Source: a phage
Direction: 5' to 3' (one strand)
DNA: 64,000 nt
Assembly (NCBI GenBank): GCA_025677605.1
Contig: GCA_025677605.1_4110.1
The notes beneath the pieces are model-generated. The model did no database searches. It had not been told where the DNA came from and saw only the letters and a list, made by a program, of their open reading frames with translations. Each line of letters starts with the position of its first letter. Position 1 is the stretch's first letter. The position numbers and the translations under genes are program-made. Below, piece by piece: positions 18,393-58,796 of this stretch.

Positions 18393-19442
18393 TTATAATG
18401 ATCTATAGATTTGTATTAGTAGATTCTTGTCGAACATTGGAGAATCAATTTCCATGATTTGTTGTAAAACTATCTCATCAACTGATTCAGTACTTTCAAA
18501 GTGTTCACCTTCTTCCAAAAGTTCTTTGATACTTTGTTTACTTGTAACAACGTTAAACTCACGAATATTATAAAGTTTAGTAAAAGTATCACGAATAAAA
18601 CTAATCTCATCAGTTGTGATTGGAATATCAACCTGAACTTTCGAGATAGAGTTATCTTGTAAGTAATAACTTGGATCAGTTAGTAGCTCTGACAAAGTAA
18701 ATGTTCTGTATTTCGGTGCAGCATCCCATGATTTGAATGTTGGTTCTGAACCGTGTTCAAGAATCATAACACCTCTAGCATCATCCCATGTGTCTGAGAA
18801 GTTATGAGGGAAACAGTTACCAGTATAAATGACACGAGTTCCTTTGGATGTGAGTTTTGATTGTCGTTTATGGAAATGCCCACTAAAAACATACTCACAA
18901 CCACCAAAAGAACCTTCAGTCTCTTTGCCATGATCTGGCATTTCTACCATTTTGTTAAGCAAATATCCAGGTAATTCAAGATGACCAAATACATATTTGC
19001 TTTGTAATTTAGGTAGCATTTTGTATTCATCTTCAATCATAAATGGAATGAAAGTACAATCGTCGATTGTAGTAATTTCATTAATGAACTCGATGTTTTC
19101 ATAAACTTGTGCCATATTAATACTTGTAATATCGCGTTTGTTTTTATGATACATGTCATGGTTCCCAACTAAGAAGTAAACTTTATCAAAGTTGTCATTT
19201 AGTAATTGGAGAATTTGTAAACCATAGTTTAATGTTTGAATATTAATGTTGCTGCGGTTATGGAAGTAATCTCCCATAAACACACATACTTTAATACCTT
19301 TCTTTTTGGCTTCATCAATCATAAATTTAATGAAGTTCAAACAATCTTCGTTGTGCTGCTTACTGTTATTCTTTAATCCTAAATGAATATCAGTGAATGT
19401 AATTGCTTTATCAAATAGTGCCATCGTCATTTTTCCTTTCAA
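18393..19442 (-). CDS. Recombination nuclease subunit (gp47-like, SbcD/Mre11 family)
   Basis: Calcineurin-like phosphoesterase motifs: DIHLG, GDYFH, GNHD, GHxH (FSGHFHKRQ); immediately upstream of the gp46-like gene. Confidence 0.85.
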   Translation of the reverse strand: MKGKMTMALFDKAITFTDIHLGLKNNSKQHNEDCLNFIKFMIDEAKKKGIKVCVFMGDYFHNRSNINIQTLNYGLQILQLLNDNFDKVYFLVGNHDMYHKNKRDITSINMAQVYENIEFINEITTIDDCTFIPFMIEDEYKMLPKLQSKYVFGHLELPGYLLNKMVEMPDHGKETEGSFGGCEYVFSGHFHKRQSKLTSKGTRVIYTGNCFPHNFSDTWDDARGVMILEHGSEPTFKSWDAAPKYRTFTLSELLTDPSYYLQDNSISKVQVDIPITTDEISFIRDTFTKLYNIREFNVVTSKQSIKELLEEGEHFESTESVDEIVLQQIMEIDSPMFDKNLLIQIYRSL

Positions 19443-20295
19443 TCATATTCATTTCGATTTCAATCTGTCTTGTATGTGATGGTGTAAAACCATGCATCTC
19501 AAGAAGGTCGTCGCGAATGTTACGTACATTCTTCTCACTGTTCAAAATAGAACGGAAGCTATTGTTAACGAATGACGTATAGTATGAGAAAGGATTTAGT
19601 TGGACAGCGGGTTTATCTTTCTTATACAAGATACTCTCTTTAAAGAGAAGTGCATTTTTAACTAATTGTATTCTAGCATCACCCATCATTTCATCCAAAT
19701 ACGTATAATTTCTGTAGTTAGATTTGTGAGAGATCTCTTCTGCTAGTTTAATGAACATTTTACCGAGTTCATTTGTGATTTTACCATGTGTTAAGCAGAA
19801 ATCGCCATCTTCCAAGTCGCCTTTCCAATGTGAACGAACAACTTCATACAGAATACCTTCATTATCAACGATATAATGTTTAAATGGTTCAAAATTCACT
19901 CGTGTATCTGGTGGAATGTGCTCATCAGTGATAACTCGAATCACCACTTCATCCAGTGGTACATCATTTACGAATAGACCGTGCTCATCAGCATATTCCT
20001 TTGCTTTCTTAGCACTCATATTCTCTTTTTCGCGAACACTATCAAGCATTTCATTATTCAAACGTTTGATTCGTGCTGCTTTTGCCTTTTCAAGTAATTC
20101 TTCTGTGATTTCAGACTCATGAAACACAATATAATCATACATACCATAACTTTTATCCAAAAGCCAGCAGTATGATATCTTACTTTTATGTATTTCACGT
20201 AATAAGTCTGCGTTATTCAGATACTTCTTACGCTTCGGCTTGTTTATCATTGTAACTCTCCATGTAATGACCAATAGGCACAATCCGTGTGCCAT
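19411..20295 (-). CDS. Late-transcription sigma factor (gp55-like) with internal insertion; probable start Met at 20250 (MINKPK)
   Basis: N-terminus INKPKRKKYLNNADLLREI vs T4 gp55 TKPKYNYVNNKELLQAI; core LGKMFIKLAEEIS...NYTYLDEMMGDA...NPFSYYTSFVNNSF vs T4 IGLAIMLIAEGLS...SGYTQSWKQEMIADG...NPHAYITQACFNAF (from memory). Confidence 0.7.
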   Translation of the reverse strand: MAHGLCLLVITWRVTMINKPKRKKYLNNADLLREIHKSKISYCWLLDKSYGMYDYIVFHESEITEELLEKAKAARIKRLNNEMLDSVREKENMSAKKAKEYADEHGLFVNDVPLDEVVIRVITDEHIPPDTRVNFEPFKHYIVDNEGILYEVVRSHWKGDLEDGDFCLTHGKITNELGKMFIKLAEEISHKSNYRNYTYLDEMMGDARIQLVKNALLFKESILYKKDKPAVQLNPFSYYTSFVNNSFRSILNSEKNVRNIRDDLLEMHGFTPSHTRQIEIEMNMIERKNDDGTI

Positions 20296-53252: not shown

Positions 53253-56200
53253 ATGTACTCGATAAAAACAGATCTAGCAGTAACTGGTAATACTAATGTT
53301 GGTAAAGAATTATCAGTTAAAGGTAATGCGGTCTTCGATAAAAACGTAACCATTAAGGGGACCGTTAGTTTCGCTGATGCTACCTTCACTGCAATTACAG
53401 TAGATCAAGCAACAATCAACACAACACTCGATGTTACAGGCAAAGCGTCACTTAAGGGTGGAATGGATGTACTTGGCAATACAGTTATTGGTAATACTAC
53501 TGCTGGTTCCGATACAGCAACTATTAATTCCAATGCTACTTTTAATGGCACTTCTACTTTTGCCAAAGATATTACACAAACATCAGGAAAAGCAATTTTT
53601 CAAGATACCACCACTTCTGCATTAGAAGTTAATGGTACAACAACATTAAATGGTAACCTCACTGCTGCGGCAGCAACCACTGCAAGCTTTGATAAATTAA
53701 CTGCTAATGAAGCAACCATTGCAACTGTATCAGCAACTGATATTACTGCAACTGGTGCAACCGTTGAGAATCTAACTGTAACTGGTAAATTAGATGGTGA
53801 TTTCACATTAGGGGATGTTAATACCGATAATTTAGTTGTTGAAAAACTATCTACATTAAAAGGTGCTGTAACCCTAGAATCAAACATCATTGGTACTAAT
53901 ACTGTAGCAAACCTAAAAGCTGTATCTTTGGGTTCTAATGCAGCGGATTCGACTGCACGCCTAGGCTTTGCATATACTGCTCCTGGTTTACGCCCAACTG
54001 TAATTCTACAAAACGAAGTACAGTCCGAGCTAATGACACCAGCAAATCTAACAGTACTTAAAACTGCTACATTTGGTGATGTATCAGCAGCAACCAATGG
54101 TATTACCGCAAAAGGTTTGAACCTATTTGATTACCTAACACTTTCTGGTAACTCAATACAAGATCCAACCACACCAATTCTACGTGTAACTAAAGGTAAA
54201 ACACAATTAACTGACCTACAAGTTGATGGAACTACTAATATTACTGGTAAAACTACTGTTGGTGATTTGGATATTACTGGAACACTATCAGGTAACTTTG
54301 TACTAAGTGATATTACTGCGGATAATTTAGTTGTTGAAAAACTAACTACACTAAAAGGTGCATTAAACCTAGAATCTAATATTGTTGGTTCAACTGCGAA
54401 TGCTAATTTAAAATCTGTCACTTTAGGTGGAAACGTAGCAGACACGAATGCTAAAGTTAACTTTACATATACTGCTCCTGGTTTACGTCCAACTGTAATT
54501 CTACAAAACGAAGTACAGTCCGAATTAATGACCCCAGCAAATCTAACAGTGCTGAAAACTGCTACATTTGGTGATGTATCTGCATCTACCTACGGTATTA
54601 CAGCAAAAGGTTTGAACCTATTTGATTATTTGAAAATAACTGGTAATGCGGTACAAGATCCAAATACATTAACTCTAGATGTGGATGGTAAGGCTCAATT
54701 CAAAGACGTTAATTTCACTGGTACAGTTACTGGTTTTGTTCCTGACATTTCTGGTCAAGATATTACACCTAAAGATGTAACTGCTTCTGGTAATATTAGT
54801 GGTGTTAATCTAGATGCTTCTGGTACACTAACAGTTGATGGGGATTCCGTTCTAAAAGGCACAACTATAACTGATTTGACTGTTACTGGAACTACAACTG
54901 GTATTACACTAGCTGGTCAAGACATTACTCCTAAAGATGTAACTGCATCTGGTAATGTTAAAGGTGTTGACGTAACTGCATCTGGAAACCTAACAGTTGA
55001 CGGTACTACCACATTGGTTGGTAACACGGTAGTTGATGGTTTATTTGAAGTTGTTGGTCAAACAACCACTGTTAAAGATTTGAACGTTACTGGTACACTA
55101 TCTGGTGCTGCAATTAAAGCAAACGTTGATGGTCTAGACATTCTACCTAATTCTGTAACCACAACTGAAGAAGTTGCAGTGGGGACTAATCTAAGTGTTG
55201 GTGGAAACGCACTCTTTAGTGGCTTGAAAGTTGAAGTTACTGGTAAAGTTACTGGTGTTGGTTCTGATGCATTAGAAACTGGTTCAATTGAATCTGACGG
55301 TACTATCACTGCCCCAAATATCACAGCAACTACTAAAGTGACCGCAGCTTCCGCACAAATTACCGGAACCGGAACTGGTCTAAGTGTAGATCATAATGCA
55401 TCAGTTGGTGGTGATTTAAATGTTACTGGAACTTTAACGGCTGGTGTTATTGACCTAAGTGCGGCTGATGTAACTGTTAAAACACTTGATGTATCTGAAA
55501 GTGCACATGTAGGTGGAAACCTAACTGTTGATGGTACTGTAGATTTAAGTGCAGCAGATGTAAGTGTTAAATCTTTAACTAGTGCTGGTCCTGTGATTAG
55601 TAATGATGCTACTGGAACTAACATTCTACCAAAATTACAAAGTACTGATATTACTACAACTAACAGTACAACTGGTACAGCAACAGTAACTACAGCAAAC
55701 ATTTCTACATTAAATGTTACTGGTGAAAGTACATTGGCTGCTGTTTCTGCTGTTTCTGTAACTACTCCTTCTATTGTTAATACCGATGGTATTAATTTAG
55801 AAAATGATACAGTTGCACATGGTGACCTAACTGTTAAAGGTACATTTACACCTGAAGGTGGATTAGATTTAAGCCCAGTTGATATCAGTTCTAAATCATT
55901 AACAACAACTGAAGGTGCAACCATTGGTGGAAGCTTAACTGTTGATGGTGCAATTAATGCTGCTGCGGCAGATCTAACTGTTAAATCACTAACTTCTTCT
56001 GGTGTTATTACTGTTACTGAAAATACTGAACCAAGTATTCTACCAAAACTAACAAGTACTGAAGCAACCGCTGGTAAATTGAATGTTACTGGTGATGCAA
56101 CAGTCGGTGGTAAAGCGACCGTTTCTGGTGCACTTGAAGTTACTGGTGCTTCAACATTTGGTAACGCAGTAACTGTAAACGTCGGTGGTATTACTGCTAA

Positions 56201-58796
56201 AGGTGGCTTGACTGTTGCTTCTGGAAACTTGAAAGTTGCTGCTGCGGCAGTGGTTGATGGTTCAGTAAGTGCTGGTTCATACACAAGTGCTGGAGATAAA
56301 ATAACACTAGCTAAACCAACAGATGTTACTGGTGATTTGCACGTTGAAGGTGCTTTCACTGCAACTTCCGTTGATTTTAGTACAACTGATTTAACTGTTA
56401 AATCACTACAAGTTGATAATGACGTTACTATCGATGGTAACTTGACTATCACAAATGCTGATTTGGAAACTAACTCATTAGCAAGTACTACAAGTACTAC
56501 TGTTGGTACTGACCTAATTCTAACTACTGGTACAATTACTGGTGCTCCAACAATTTCTGGTGCAACTACACTAAGTTCAACCCTACATACTGTAGGTGCT
56601 GCAACTTTTGATGGTACTGTTGATGTTGGTGGTAAAATTACTTCTAAATCAATCCAAGTAAGTGCTACTGGTGTTGGTGTAGCTGTTGATAATGATGCAA
56701 CTGTTGGTGGTTATTTGACAATTGGTGAAACATTAGGTGTTACTGGACTAAGTACTCTGTCTGGTGGGGTTGATGCAGGTTCTGCATTAATCAAAACTAC
56801 TGGTGAAGTTCAATCAGCAACTCTACAAACTTCTGGTAAAGCAACACTAGCAAGTGTTGATGTTTCAGGTGATGCAGTTGTTACTGGTGACCTAACTGTT
56901 AAAGGTGCATTTACACCTGAAGGTAGCCTAAACTTAGGTTCTGCTGTTCTAAACGTTGAAGGTGTTGATGCAAGTGCTAACTTAACTGCACTCGGTTCTG
57001 TAACTGCTGGTACTACACTAACTGTTACTGGTGTTTCAACTCTAAATGGTGGTACTAACACTACTACTCTTTCAACAAGTGGTAAAGCTACATTAAGTAG
57101 TGCGGAAGTTACTGGTGCTCTAAGTGCTGGTGGTGCTTTGGCTGTTACTGGTACTACAAATCTAACTGGAAAACTAACCGCTGGTGAAGCTGCTCTCAGT
57201 TCACTAACAGTTTCTGGTGATGTTACCATTAATGGAACACTAAACCCTGGAACATTGGATCTATCTACTACTCCAGTTGATGCGAAAAGCTTGAAATCTA
57301 GAGAAACACTAGAAGTTACTGGTCTAAGCACTCTAACTGGTGGTTTGGCTGTTAGTGCAAATACCGCAATCACTGCTGCTGGTGACATTACTGGTACTAC
57401 AATTACCACAACTGGTAAAGGTACATTTGGTAGTGCAGCGGTAACTACTGGTTTGACTGTTGGTGGTGCTTTGGTTGTTAATGGTGCATCCGTGAACATC
57501 TCTGATGCTTCTACTGTGACTATGCCTAAAGCTGATATTTCTGCGAAAGGTATTATCATCGGTCCTAAAGTTAGTTCAAGACCGGAAACTATCCAATTTG
57601 TTGGTGATACTTATATTGGTAGTAACCTATTTGTTGCTGGTAATATTAACGGTTCAGTAGATTTGGCTGGTCAGGATATTTCCCTGAACTCATTAACTTC
57701 TAATACCACAATTCACGCAGTTGAGGATATTACTACTGATGAAGATATGCACGCACGTGCTGCAACATTCGGTGCACAAGGTTCAACAGCTAACAGCCTA
57801 ACTGTTAATGGTAACGCAGTAACTACTGGCGACTTTACTGTTAGTGGTAAGATTATTGGTACACTGGACCAATCTGCAAGTGCAGTCGAAGTTAAATCTC
57901 TAACTTCTACAACCTTTATCGCTGCTGGTACAACCCTAACAGTTGGTTCAACAATCACTGCTGAAGGTTTGAGTACTTTGAAAGGTGGTATTGCAACTAA
58001 TGGTGCTACAATCAACGCTGGTGATGGTGCAATCACTACAACTGGTGATGTGTCTGGTGCAAACGTTAGTGCGTCTGGTGCAGTAACTACTGCAACTATT
58101 ACAACTTCTGGCCTAGCAACTATGGCAAGTGCTAAGATTAACACTACTCTAGCAGTTACTGGTGCAACTACACTATCTGATGTTGTTACTATCGGTAAGA
58201 AACTAACTGTTAGTACTGGTGGTATCGAAATCACTGCGGGTGGCTTCAATGTAGTTGCGGGTGGTGCAGCAATTACTGGTGCTACTAACCTTAAAGGTGC
58301 TGTAACACTAGGTTCTGCGTCTGCTGATGCAATCACAGTTACTGGTACATCTTCATTTGCTGAAAATGCAACATTTGCTAAAGATGTGACTATTGAAGGC
58401 ACACTACATACAGATATTGCTGATTTAGTAACTGAAAGTGTAACTACTAAAAAGTATGCTGTTACACCTGCTGCTAAAGTACAGGCATCTGTTGCTGCTC
58501 CAAGTGAAGGAACATGGTCACCTGATGGTGAGTCTAATGTGTACTATATTACACTAGACCAAGCATCAACTACACTAGGTCCAATTAACGGATTGATTGG
58601 AAGTGGTAAGGCTGGTTCTTACTATATCTACGTACAACAAGATGCAACTGGTGGACGTGAACTTATCACTGATGGTACTTATGCAGTAGTAGGTGGTGAG
58701 ATTAACAAAACACAAAATACAGTTAGTATCATTCAGTTGATTTATGATGGATACAGCCCAGTAGTAGATATGTTTATTGCACAACGTACTGCTTAA
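53253..58796 (+). CDS. Giant repetitive fibre protein (1847 aa)
   Basis: Extreme Thr/Val/Gly/Ala/Asn composition with recurring units (..LTVDGT..LSAADV.VKSLT..); internal tandem duplications; GGAGGG RBS. Confidence 0.6.
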   Translation: MYSIKTDLAVTGNTNVGKELSVKGNAVFDKNVTIKGTVSFADATFTAITVDQATINTTLDVTGKASLKGGMDVLGNTVIGNTTAGSDTATINSNATFNGTSTFAKDITQTSGKAIFQDTTTSALEVNGTTTLNGNLTAAAATTASFDKLTANEATIATVSATDITATGATVENLTVTGKLDGDFTLGDVNTDNLVVEKLSTLKGAVTLESNIIGTNTVANLKAVSLGSNAADSTARLGFAYTAPGLRPTVILQNEVQSELMTPANLTVLKTATFGDVSAATNGITAKGLNLFDYLTLSGNSIQDPTTPILRVTKGKTQLTDLQVDGTTNITGKTTVGDLDITGTLSGNFVLSDITADNLVVEKLTTLKGALNLESNIVGSTANANLKSVTLGGNVADTNAKVNFTYTAPGLRPTVILQNEVQSELMTPANLTVLKTATFGDVSASTYGITAKGLNLFDYLKITGNAVQDPNTLTLDVDGKAQFKDVNFTGTVTGFVPDISGQDITPKDVTASGNISGVNLDASGTLTVDGDSVLKGTTITDLTVTGTTTGITLAGQDITPKDVTASGNVKGVDVTASGNLTVDGTTTLVGNTVVDGLFEVVGQTTTVKDLNVTGTLSGAAIKANVDGLDILPNSVTTTEEVAVGTNLSVGGNALFSGLKVEVTGKVTGVGSDALETGSIESDGTITAPNITATTKVTAASAQITGTGTGLSVDHNASVGGDLNVTGTLTAGVIDLSAADVTVKTLDVSESAHVGGNLTVDGTVDLSAADVSVKSLTSAGPVISNDATGTNILPKLQSTDITTTNSTTGTATVTTANISTLNVTGESTLAAVSAVSVTTPSIVNTDGINLENDTVAHGDLTVKGTFTPEGGLDLSPVDISSKSLTTTEGATIGGSLTVDGAINAAAADLTVKSLTSSGVITVTENTEPSILPKLTSTEATAGKLNVTGDATVGGKATVSGALEVTGASTFGNAVTVNVGGITAKGGLTVASGNLKVAAAAVVDGSVSAGSYTSAGDKITLAKPTDVTGDLHVEGAFTATSVDFSTTDLTVKSLQVDNDVTIDGNLTITNADLETNSLASTTSTTVGTDLILTTGTITGAPTISGATTLSSTLHTVGAATFDGTVDVGGKITSKSIQVSATGVGVAVDNDATVGGYLTIGETLGVTGLSTLSGGVDAGSALIKTTGEVQSATLQTSGKATLASVDVSGDAVVTGDLTVKGAFTPEGSLNLGSAVLNVEGVDASANLTALGSVTAGTTLTVTGVSTLNGGTNTTTLSTSGKATLSSAEVTGALSAGGALAVTGTTNLTGKLTAGEAALSSLTVSGDVTINGTLNPGTLDLSTTPVDAKSLKSRETLEVTGLSTLTGGLAVSANTAITAAGDITGTTITTTGKGTFGSAAVTTGLTVGGALVVNGASVNISDASTVTMPKADISAKGIIIGPKVSSRPETIQFVGDTYIGSNLFVAGNINGSVDLAGQDISLNSLTSNTTIHAVEDITTDEDMHARAATFGAQGSTANSLTVNGNAVTTGDFTVSGKIIGTLDQSASAVEVKSLTSTTFIAAGTTLTVGSTITAEGLSTLKGGIATNGATINAGDGAITTTGDVSGANVSASGAVTTATITTSGLATMASAKINTTLAVTGATTLSDVVTIGKKLTVSTGGIEITAGGFNVVAGGAAITGATNLKGAVTLGSASADAITVTGTSSFAENATFAKDVTIEGTLHTDIADLVTESVTTKKYAVTPAAKVQASVAAPSEGTWSPDGESNVYYITLDQASTTLGPINGLIGSGKAGSYYIYVQQDATGGRELITDGTYAVVGGEINKTQNTVSIIQLIYDGYSPVVDMFIAQRTA
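53790..54670 (+). repeat. Tandem ~390-bp duplication inside the fibre gene (units ~53790-54180 and ~54290-54670)
   Basis: ~90% nucleotide identity between e.g. 53983-54160 and 54473-54650 (TAPGLRPTVILQNEVQSELMTPANLTVLKTATFGDVSA in both). Confidence 0.7.

Follow-up and report, generated by a model that had tools for sequence, protein, structure and literature searches.

The stretch of DNA analysed here (the window, 64 kb of phage sequence) contains a gene for an 1847-aa fibre protein in which blocks of sequence occur twice. The initial annotation described a pair of ~390-bp units, ~90% identical, followed by a second, shorter pair, and proposed that they are recent in-frame duplications that lengthen the fibre and provide substrates for recombination between virions or strains. 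The locus raises the question of what is repeated, how old the repeats are, and whether they have in fact recombined.

The fibre gene and its locus

The repeats lie in the following gene of the ORF list:

53253..58796, + strand: tail-fibre gene, 1847 aa

Over its full length the gene is 98.0% identical in nucleotide sequence to A4_569 of Escherichia phage A4, an Asteriusvirus jumbo myophage of 355 kb. The encoded protein matches the profile phrog_4549 ('tail fiber protein') across the full length of the profile, in eight stretches, with E = 1.2e-177 and 594 bits, whereas nothing in Pfam or NCBIfam scored above threshold. A Bactofilin-like beta-helix (PF04519) was considered and rejected: it reached 14.4 bits against a gathering threshold of 27.9 (E = 0.045), and that in the second copy of the large repeat only.

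In the locus, small structural proteins are followed by a tailspike that degrades colanic acid, a structural protein of 300 aa, the fibre gene and two further structural proteins; the locus ends with a thymidylate synthase gene, which lies downstream of the fibre gene on the opposite strand. This gene order matches that of A4, 121Q, Munch, GAP32 and others. In phAPEC6 the same locus is occupied by gp256, a tail-fibre protein of 180 kDa that mass spectrometry detected in virions (PMC7247149). The gene order and the presence of phAPEC6 gp256 in virions place the window protein among the virion structural proteins of a conserved fibre locus. The gene is the ortholog of A4_569, 121Q gp571 and phAPEC6 gp256 and encodes the large tail-fibre protein of a jumbo coliphage of the genus Asteriusvirus.

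In GenBank, A4_569 carries the label 'long tail fiber proximal subunit', which likens it to gp34 of phage T4. Structures of C-terminal fragments of T4 gp34 have been solved, and a sequence search of the PDB at E <= 1 returned the fibre of phage phiTE alone. With no T4 gp34 chain among the PDB matches and no match in Pfam or NCBIfam, the label lacks support from the sequence.

Two pairs of in-frame tandem repeats

Comparison of the fibre gene with itself revealed unit-length repetition far beyond chance, not low-complexity similarity. In self-blastn, positions 53814-54168 aligned with positions 54309-54663 (81.2% identity over 357 nt, E = 3e-79). Self-blastp of the protein returned the trivial full-length match only, and a scan of the self-diagonals was used instead; its top diagonal is offset by exactly 165 aa, and 30 consecutive residues along it are identical. 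The limits of the large unit, hereafter called the module, were set by a profile HMM built from module copies. The repeats are arranged as follows:

53760..54182, + strand: module copy 1 (c1), aa 170-310; HMM domain, model positions 1-141, score 190
54183..54254, + strand: 24-aa linker between the module copies, in which the in-register comparison drops to 10-35% amino acid identity
54255..54677, + strand: module copy 2 (c2), aa 335-475; HMM domain, model positions 1-141, score 188
54741..54902, + strand: first 54-aa unit of the short pair, with its conserved part at 54751-54841 (GQDITPKDVTASGN...LTVDG)
54903..55064, + strand: second 54-aa unit of the short pair, with its conserved part at 54913-55003; an extra unit present in the window and A4 only

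The module comprises ~141 aa (~423 nt) and is filled out by the linker, for which no clear equivalent follows copy 2, to a period of 165 aa (495 nt). Both copies share the reading frame of the 1847-aa ORF, and over the 423-nt unit they are 77% identical in nucleotide and 72% identical in amino acid sequence. The repeat itself thus stands, but the unit is longer than the ~390 bp first estimated and less conserved, the ~90% identity being confined to a core of 168 nt that is treated below. Both copies map to one and the same stretch of phrog_4549, at about positions 323-459, since the profile holds the module once. A profile scan of the 64-kb window did not find a third full copy.

The shorter pair was found downstream of the modules, as had been proposed. 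Its conserved parts, 54751-54841 and 54913-55003, are 82-83% identical, and the in-frame units recur every 162 nt (54 aa). Conservation does not extend beyond the ~30 N-terminal residues of a unit, and 28 of the 54 residues are identical. The head-to-tail order, the periods of 495 and 162 nt, both multiples of three, and the single profile region to which the modules map characterize in-frame tandem duplications. As in-frame duplications of fibre sequence they add length to the fibre, in line with the earlier proposal. Tandem Repeats Finder reported neither the large nor the short pair, probably because the copies are diverged and number two only, with a period near the program's limit of 500. 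An assembly artefact is ruled out by phage A4, which was sequenced independently and carries both pairs with identical spacing.

The module in related phages

A tblastn search with one module unit matched 59 phage records, at one to five sites in each genome, and the phages were without exception jumbo myophages of Enterobacterales or Xanthomonas. Among 1.84 billion cluster representatives, searched exhaustively with HMMER, only 12 proteins contain the module, and those with full-length matches mostly have it in two copies; a word-indexed protein database yielded four proteins for a two-module query and one for the module profile. The fibre genes of twelve relatives were fetched and scanned with the module profile, which gave the following copy numbers per fibre:

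One copy: Serratia BF, Xanthomonas XaC1
Two copies: GAP32, Munch, 121Q, Ecwhy_207, Ecwhy_208, EcMJ_303, EcMJ_305, Tur5_801
Three copies: EJP2, CRJP21, Tur5_800

All of the complete Asteriusvirus fibres examined (8/8) carry two or three copies and the more distant relatives one to three, with two copies being the commonest state in the family. The comparison across related phages thus disclosed a range of one to three large units, although none of this variation separates the window from A4: the two have equal copy numbers and no indels in the repeats, and they diverge by 0.5% outside the C-terminus of the gene. A single copy in an Asteriusvirus-like sequence was encountered only in the fragment P0004, in which a c2-type module is joined straight to the sequence that precedes c1; as P0004 comes from a 2.4-kb short-read contig that may have collapsed during assembly, it is a weak example only.

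In neighbour-joining trees of protein and DNA, which rest on 141 aa or 423 nt, the copies of the Asteriusviruses other than A4 form one clade of c1 and another of c2. Within each of these genes, the nucleotide identity between c1 and c2 is 67-73%. Grouping by position implies that the duplication predates the divergence of the non-A4 Asteriusviruses, and, judged from these sequences, the two-copy arrangement is an old, maintained architecture and not a recent event.

The short pair has a different distribution. Only the window and A4 contain the motif GQD[IL]TP[KN]x[VI] two times (the GQDITPKDV pair); it occurs once, after the last module, in 11 of the 13 other complete fibres examined and is absent from the remaining two, those of GAP32 and XaC1_300. 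In an alignment to Munch the window contains an insertion of ~48 aa at the short pair, and in an alignment to Ecwhy_207 the gaps at this site total 32 aa. By these sequence comparisons the 54-aa duplication is specific to the lineage of the window and A4. With 82% identity between its units it is not very young.

The recent origin suggested by the initial annotation does not apply to the large pair, in view of the positional grouping of the copies in relatives, the 67% identity of the sequence that flanks the core and the prevalence of the two-copy state. For the short pair the suggestion was half right: the duplication is lineage-specific, but at its level of identity it cannot be called very young.

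A homogenised core in the window and A4

The similarity between the two module copies of the window is unevenly distributed. A maximum chi-square analysis delimited a segment in each copy:

53966..54133, + strand: homogenised core of module copy 1, pairing with 54461-54628
54461..54628, + strand: homogenised core of module copy 2, pairing with 53966-54133

The two cores differ at 13 of 168 nt (92% identity) whereas the remaining 255 nt of the module contain 85 differences, and none of 200 permutations produced a mosaic as extreme. The longest exact matches between the cores are 35, 26, 26 and 22 nt. Within the core, 39 codons (aa 241-279, YTAPGLRPTVILQNEVQSELMTPANLTVLKTATFGDVSA) specify an identical protein sequence from DNA that is 94% identical, with seven synonymous differences persisting. 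In six other Asteriusvirus fibres the cores of c1 and c2 are 73-78% identical, in contrast to the 92% of the window and A4. Outside the core, the window copies are 67% identical in DNA, a divergence like that between the long-separated c1 and c2 of the relatives. The likeness of the cores extends to synonymous positions: among identical residues, the fraction encoded by identical codons is 0.82 in the window core, 0.51 in the N-terminal block of the window module and 0.43 in the core of 121Q.

A tract that is far more alike than its flanks, synonymous sites included, and that is absent from relatives has the properties of a gene-conversion tract, and this pattern suggests that the core was homogenised by gene conversion in the A4 lineage. 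The seven synonymous differences left in the 39 identical codons indicate that the conversion was not very recent. Fourfold-degenerate sites are a poor clock in these genes, as strong codon bias keeps them 50-90% identical even between diverged copies, and the bias weakens what can be concluded from synonymous sites.

The sites at which c1 and c2 of 121Q differ provide a view of the affinities of the window copies. In the two cores, 121Q-c1-type and c2-type informative sites stand at 28:12 and 25:12, whereas they are balanced in the N-terminal blocks, at 27:33 and 28:34. This distribution is compatible with conversion of a tract of ~170 nt. Of the columns that are diagnostic for position, two are consistent in the window copies, one is inverted and four are uninformative. 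In every block tree c1 and c2 of the window and A4 group together, and this includes the tree of the diverged N-terminal block.

Comparison of the window with A4 revealed 28 substitutions outside the C-terminus of the gene, 10 of which fall in the two cores, a distribution which hints that the tract is still exchanging. An attempt to read these 10 differences as polarised conversion events was abandoned, since the pattern of three sequences alike and one different is equally well explained by mutation in a tract that had already been homogenised.

Change of copy number by recombination

The middle of the three copies in CRJP21 provides the junction of a recombination event. The identity of CRJP21.c2 to 121Q.c2 is 0.92 in alignment columns 1-206 and 0.90 in columns 207-374; in columns 320-400 its identity is 0.94 to 121Q.c1 versus 0.81 to 121Q.c2, and in this segment 13 informative sites in succession, without interruption, are of the c1 type. 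On this sequence evidence the middle copy is a c2/c1 hybrid and the footprint of unequal crossing-over. Such a hybrid would be formed if c2 of one genome crossed over with c1 of another inside the conserved core.

The third copy of CRJP21, c3, groups with c2, and the extra copy of Tur5_800, its c2, groups with c1. As the extra copy of Tur5_800 is c1-like, a third copy was gained at least twice, independently. Homologous fibres thus differ in copy number, from one to three, and one of them retains a recombinant junction. The hybrid copy of CRJP21 implies that the repeats have served as recombination substrates between strains, a role that the initial annotation had foreseen.

Predicted structure of the module

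The ~141-aa module has no match in Pfam or NCBIfam and no solved structure. Its family-invariant columns are mostly Gly, Asn, Pro and Asp, with Tyr in addition, and its first ~55 residues weakly match other stretches of the same fibre. AlphaFold2 modelling of the module as a monomer yielded a pLDDT of 35 with 6 sequences and of 62 with 19 sequences, at pTM values of 0.22-0.25. The 19-sequence model, of low confidence with a pTM of 0.25, is an extended chain devoid of intrachain secondary structure, as tends to result when a single chain of an intertwined trimer is modelled.

The sole relative of solved structure identified by sequence (E = 1.6e-26) is the long tail fibre of phiTE, an rV5-like phage (PDB 9CUY/9MJN chain g, 793 aa). 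It aligns with module copy 2 of the window and with the GxDIxPxxV repeats that follow that copy. The phiTE fibre is trimeric, its N-terminus attaches it to the baseplate wedge, and an extended beta-helix is predicted after residue 171, with a predicted length of 512 A for the 793 residues (PMC11972413). Only residues 14-171 are modelled, and the module is outside the experimental structure. In phiTE a single stretch, residues 183-300, is aligned, so that its fibre apparently contains one module copy, and it has less than half the length of the window fibre.

By analogy with phiTE, the N-terminal ~170 aa that precede the first module are likely to attach the fibre to the baseplate. The module is probably a self-contained segment of a trimeric shaft that sets the length of the fibre, as the phiTE analogy, the extended model and the sequence together suggest. 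If the predicted dimensions of the phiTE fibre are scaled, each 165-aa unit would contribute roughly 10 nm and each 54-aa unit roughly 3-4 nm.

Origin and function of the repeats

We consider it probable that the repeats arose through a combination of an old tandem shaft module, shifts in its copy number, homogenisation of the core in the A4 lineage and a lineage-specific duplication of 54 aa. According to this history, a shaft module of ~141 aa would follow the N-terminal ~170 aa as an in-frame tandem array, in an arrangement old enough to be common to the Asteriusvirus fibres examined and to more distant jumbo phages. Its copy number would have moved among one, two and three by unequal homologous recombination in the conserved module core. 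In the lineage of the window and A4 a core of ~170 nt would have been homogenised well after the copies had diverged, most likely by intragenic gene conversion acting atop strong purifying selection on the protein, and the 54-aa in-frame duplication just downstream of the modules would have arisen in that lineage only. Each unit would form a mostly beta-structured stretch of the trimeric shaft, and the number of copies would determine the length and reach of the proximal fibre rather than its receptor specificity.

Parts of this history can be read differently. The pair of the window and A4 might descend from an old duplication of one ancestral module that was independent of the c1/c2 duplication in other Asteriusviruses, its core having been conserved by purifying selection alone. 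This is unlikely, yet it deserves serious consideration, because c1 and c2 of the window and A4 are sisters outside the c1 and c2 clades in the trees of both the N-terminal block and the core, because their period is 165 aa as opposed to 170-171 aa in the others, and because the position-diagnostic residues are mixed. Selection on the protein, however, leaves the synonymous likeness of the core unexplained, given how many more identical codons it has than the N-terminal block or the 121Q core, and the discontinuity is absent from six relatives that are under the same protein constraint. As the grouping of the window and A4 copies and the mixture of diagnostic residues make a separate old duplication indistinguishable from repeated homogenisation, the lineage may have undergone such a duplication and have been partly homogenised later. 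The least probable reading is that both pairs are recent and still polymorphic, with fibres of different lengths in individual virions or very close strains. A core of 92% identity with exact matches of up to 35 nt could support recombination, copy number does differ among members of the genus, and the short pair is lineage-specific; but the window and A4, independent isolates 98% identical in the gene, have the same copy number without indels in the repeats, the module copies are 67% identical in DNA outside the core, two copies are the commonest state and are positionally orthologous in the relatives, and even the short pair is just 82% identical.

A functional alternative regards the modules as docking nodes, each of which binds one accessory protein, so that copy number determines the number of branches and the cores are kept alike to bind the same partner. 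The neighbours of the gene in its cluster do include a depolymerase-type tailspike and a number of small virion proteins, phages of this group possess unusually complex, 'hairy' sets of fibres (PMC7247149), the 39-aa core is fully conserved between the copies, and in CRJP21, whose fibre has three copies, one additional structural gene lies downstream. Turkey5, with a three-copy fibre but no such gene, contradicts a tie between that gene and copy number, and the one-copy phage BF retains the same small flanking genes. Furthermore, the invariant Gly, Asn, Pro and Asp residues are of the kind expected of a structural scaffold, and in other Asteriusvirus fibres the cores are ~72% identical in protein, which means that identity between copies is not required. 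Docking by the modules is for these reasons improbable, and its more specific form, in which the one to three copies would set the number of side arms (accessory fibres or depolymerases) on each of six baseplate fibres, with the cores held identical for the same partner, is a little more so. We retain the shaft module, with its copy-number shifts and its homogenised core, as the preferred reading.

Relation to other fibres

Phage fibre genes are well known for tandem domain duplication, unequal crossing-over and concerted evolution, and internal domain duplication combined with unequal recombination is a familiar route by which fibres alter their length and reach. The repeats of the window represent ordinary modular fibre evolution, exemplified by the little-studied Asteriusvirus jumbo phages, and their discovery does not open a long-standing question. 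New is the definition of a rare module of ~141 aa, probably part of the shaft, without a match in Pfam or NCBIfam. The repeats mark where the fibre tolerates the gain or loss of whole units, which could aid phage engineering.

Tandem duplications in gene 37 of phage T4 reportedly extend the host range. They are said to resemble the window repeats in being in-frame tandem duplications of a small fibre domain that arise through recombination at short conserved motifs and vary in copy number. By the same accounts the T4 duplications affect the receptor-binding distal tip and change the host range, whereas the window units would belong to the proximal shaft; homology between the sequences of the window fibre and T4 fibres was not found. 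In the adenovirus fibre shaft, the number of repeats varies between related viruses and sets the length of the fibre. The adenovirus repeats consist of 15 residues folded into a triple beta-spiral and are not homologous to the 141-aa unit.

Close to the window fibre are the phrog_4549 fibres of the Rak2-like jumbo phages (121Q gp571, phAPEC6 gp256, GAP32_220, CBB, BF_0225 and Munch_252), whose genes occupy the same position and which share with it the N-terminus (MYSIKTDL), a conserved C-terminus and the tandem module. The fibres of the window and A4 differ from them by the shorter period, the homogenised core and the extra 54-aa unit. Apart from these repeats within the gene, several relatives contain two whole fibre paralogs in tandem at the fibre locus.

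Repeats and antisense reading frames in the shaft

Beyond the two copies of the ~141-aa module, weaker direct repeats of 30-100 nt are numerous throughout the remainder of the fibre gene, as exemplified by the pair 55805-55859 and 56870-56924 (91%). Between 55450 and 57900 of the window, corresponding to residues 734-1550 of the fibre, eight occurrences of a motif resembling D-L-S-x-x-D-[VIL]-x-V-K-S-L can be counted. The entire fibre shaft is made up of older, diverged repeats. Two long open reading frames on the opposite strand overlap the two modules:

53600-54097 (-), antisense ORF of 165 aa
54131-54445 (-), antisense ORF of 104 aa

Neither has an annotated counterpart in A4. Both are interpreted not as genes but as a side effect of the fibre gene's biased codon usage.

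The C-terminal domain

The fibre genes of the window and of phage A4 differ by 111 substitutions, 83 of which fall within the last ~340 nt (58453-58796), the stretch encoding the C-terminal ~115 aa of the window fibre; the remaining 5200 nt diverge by 0.5%. The C-terminal domain looks to have been exchanged, or to have evolved rapidly, between two phages that are near-identical elsewhere, and for this reason it may be a determinant of host range or of partner binding.

The fibre locus in related phages

In the window, A4 and 121Q the locus has a single fibre gene. Two full-length fibre paralogs, each with two or three module copies of its own, stand in tandem there in several Asteriusviruses:

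Ecwhy_1, fibre locus L005, 1059-11842
Turkey5, fibre locus L006, 9001-20388
vB_Ec-M-J, fibre locus L008, 7061-18097; the first paralog is broken into two ORFs

The three-copy phage CRJP21 possesses an additional gene downstream of the fibre, gp_302 (18750-20117 of its fibre locus, L009), which encodes a 455-aa 'structural protein', lies between genes of 780 nt and 1965 nt, and has no counterpart in 121Q or the window.

The GenBank product names of the orthologs of the fibre gene (53253-58796; A4_569) disagree with one another, with labels such as 'long tail fiber proximal subunit', 'flagellar hook-length control protein', 'YadA domain protein', 'autotransporter' and 'colanic acid-degrading protein'. 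No family match in this analysis supported any of these five. In the PBECO4 record (KC295538.1, 337720-348113; locus L007) the fibre gene is unannotated. It appears to span the ends of this linear record, since the module matches lie at 344220-344651 and the C-terminal match at 1447-1620.
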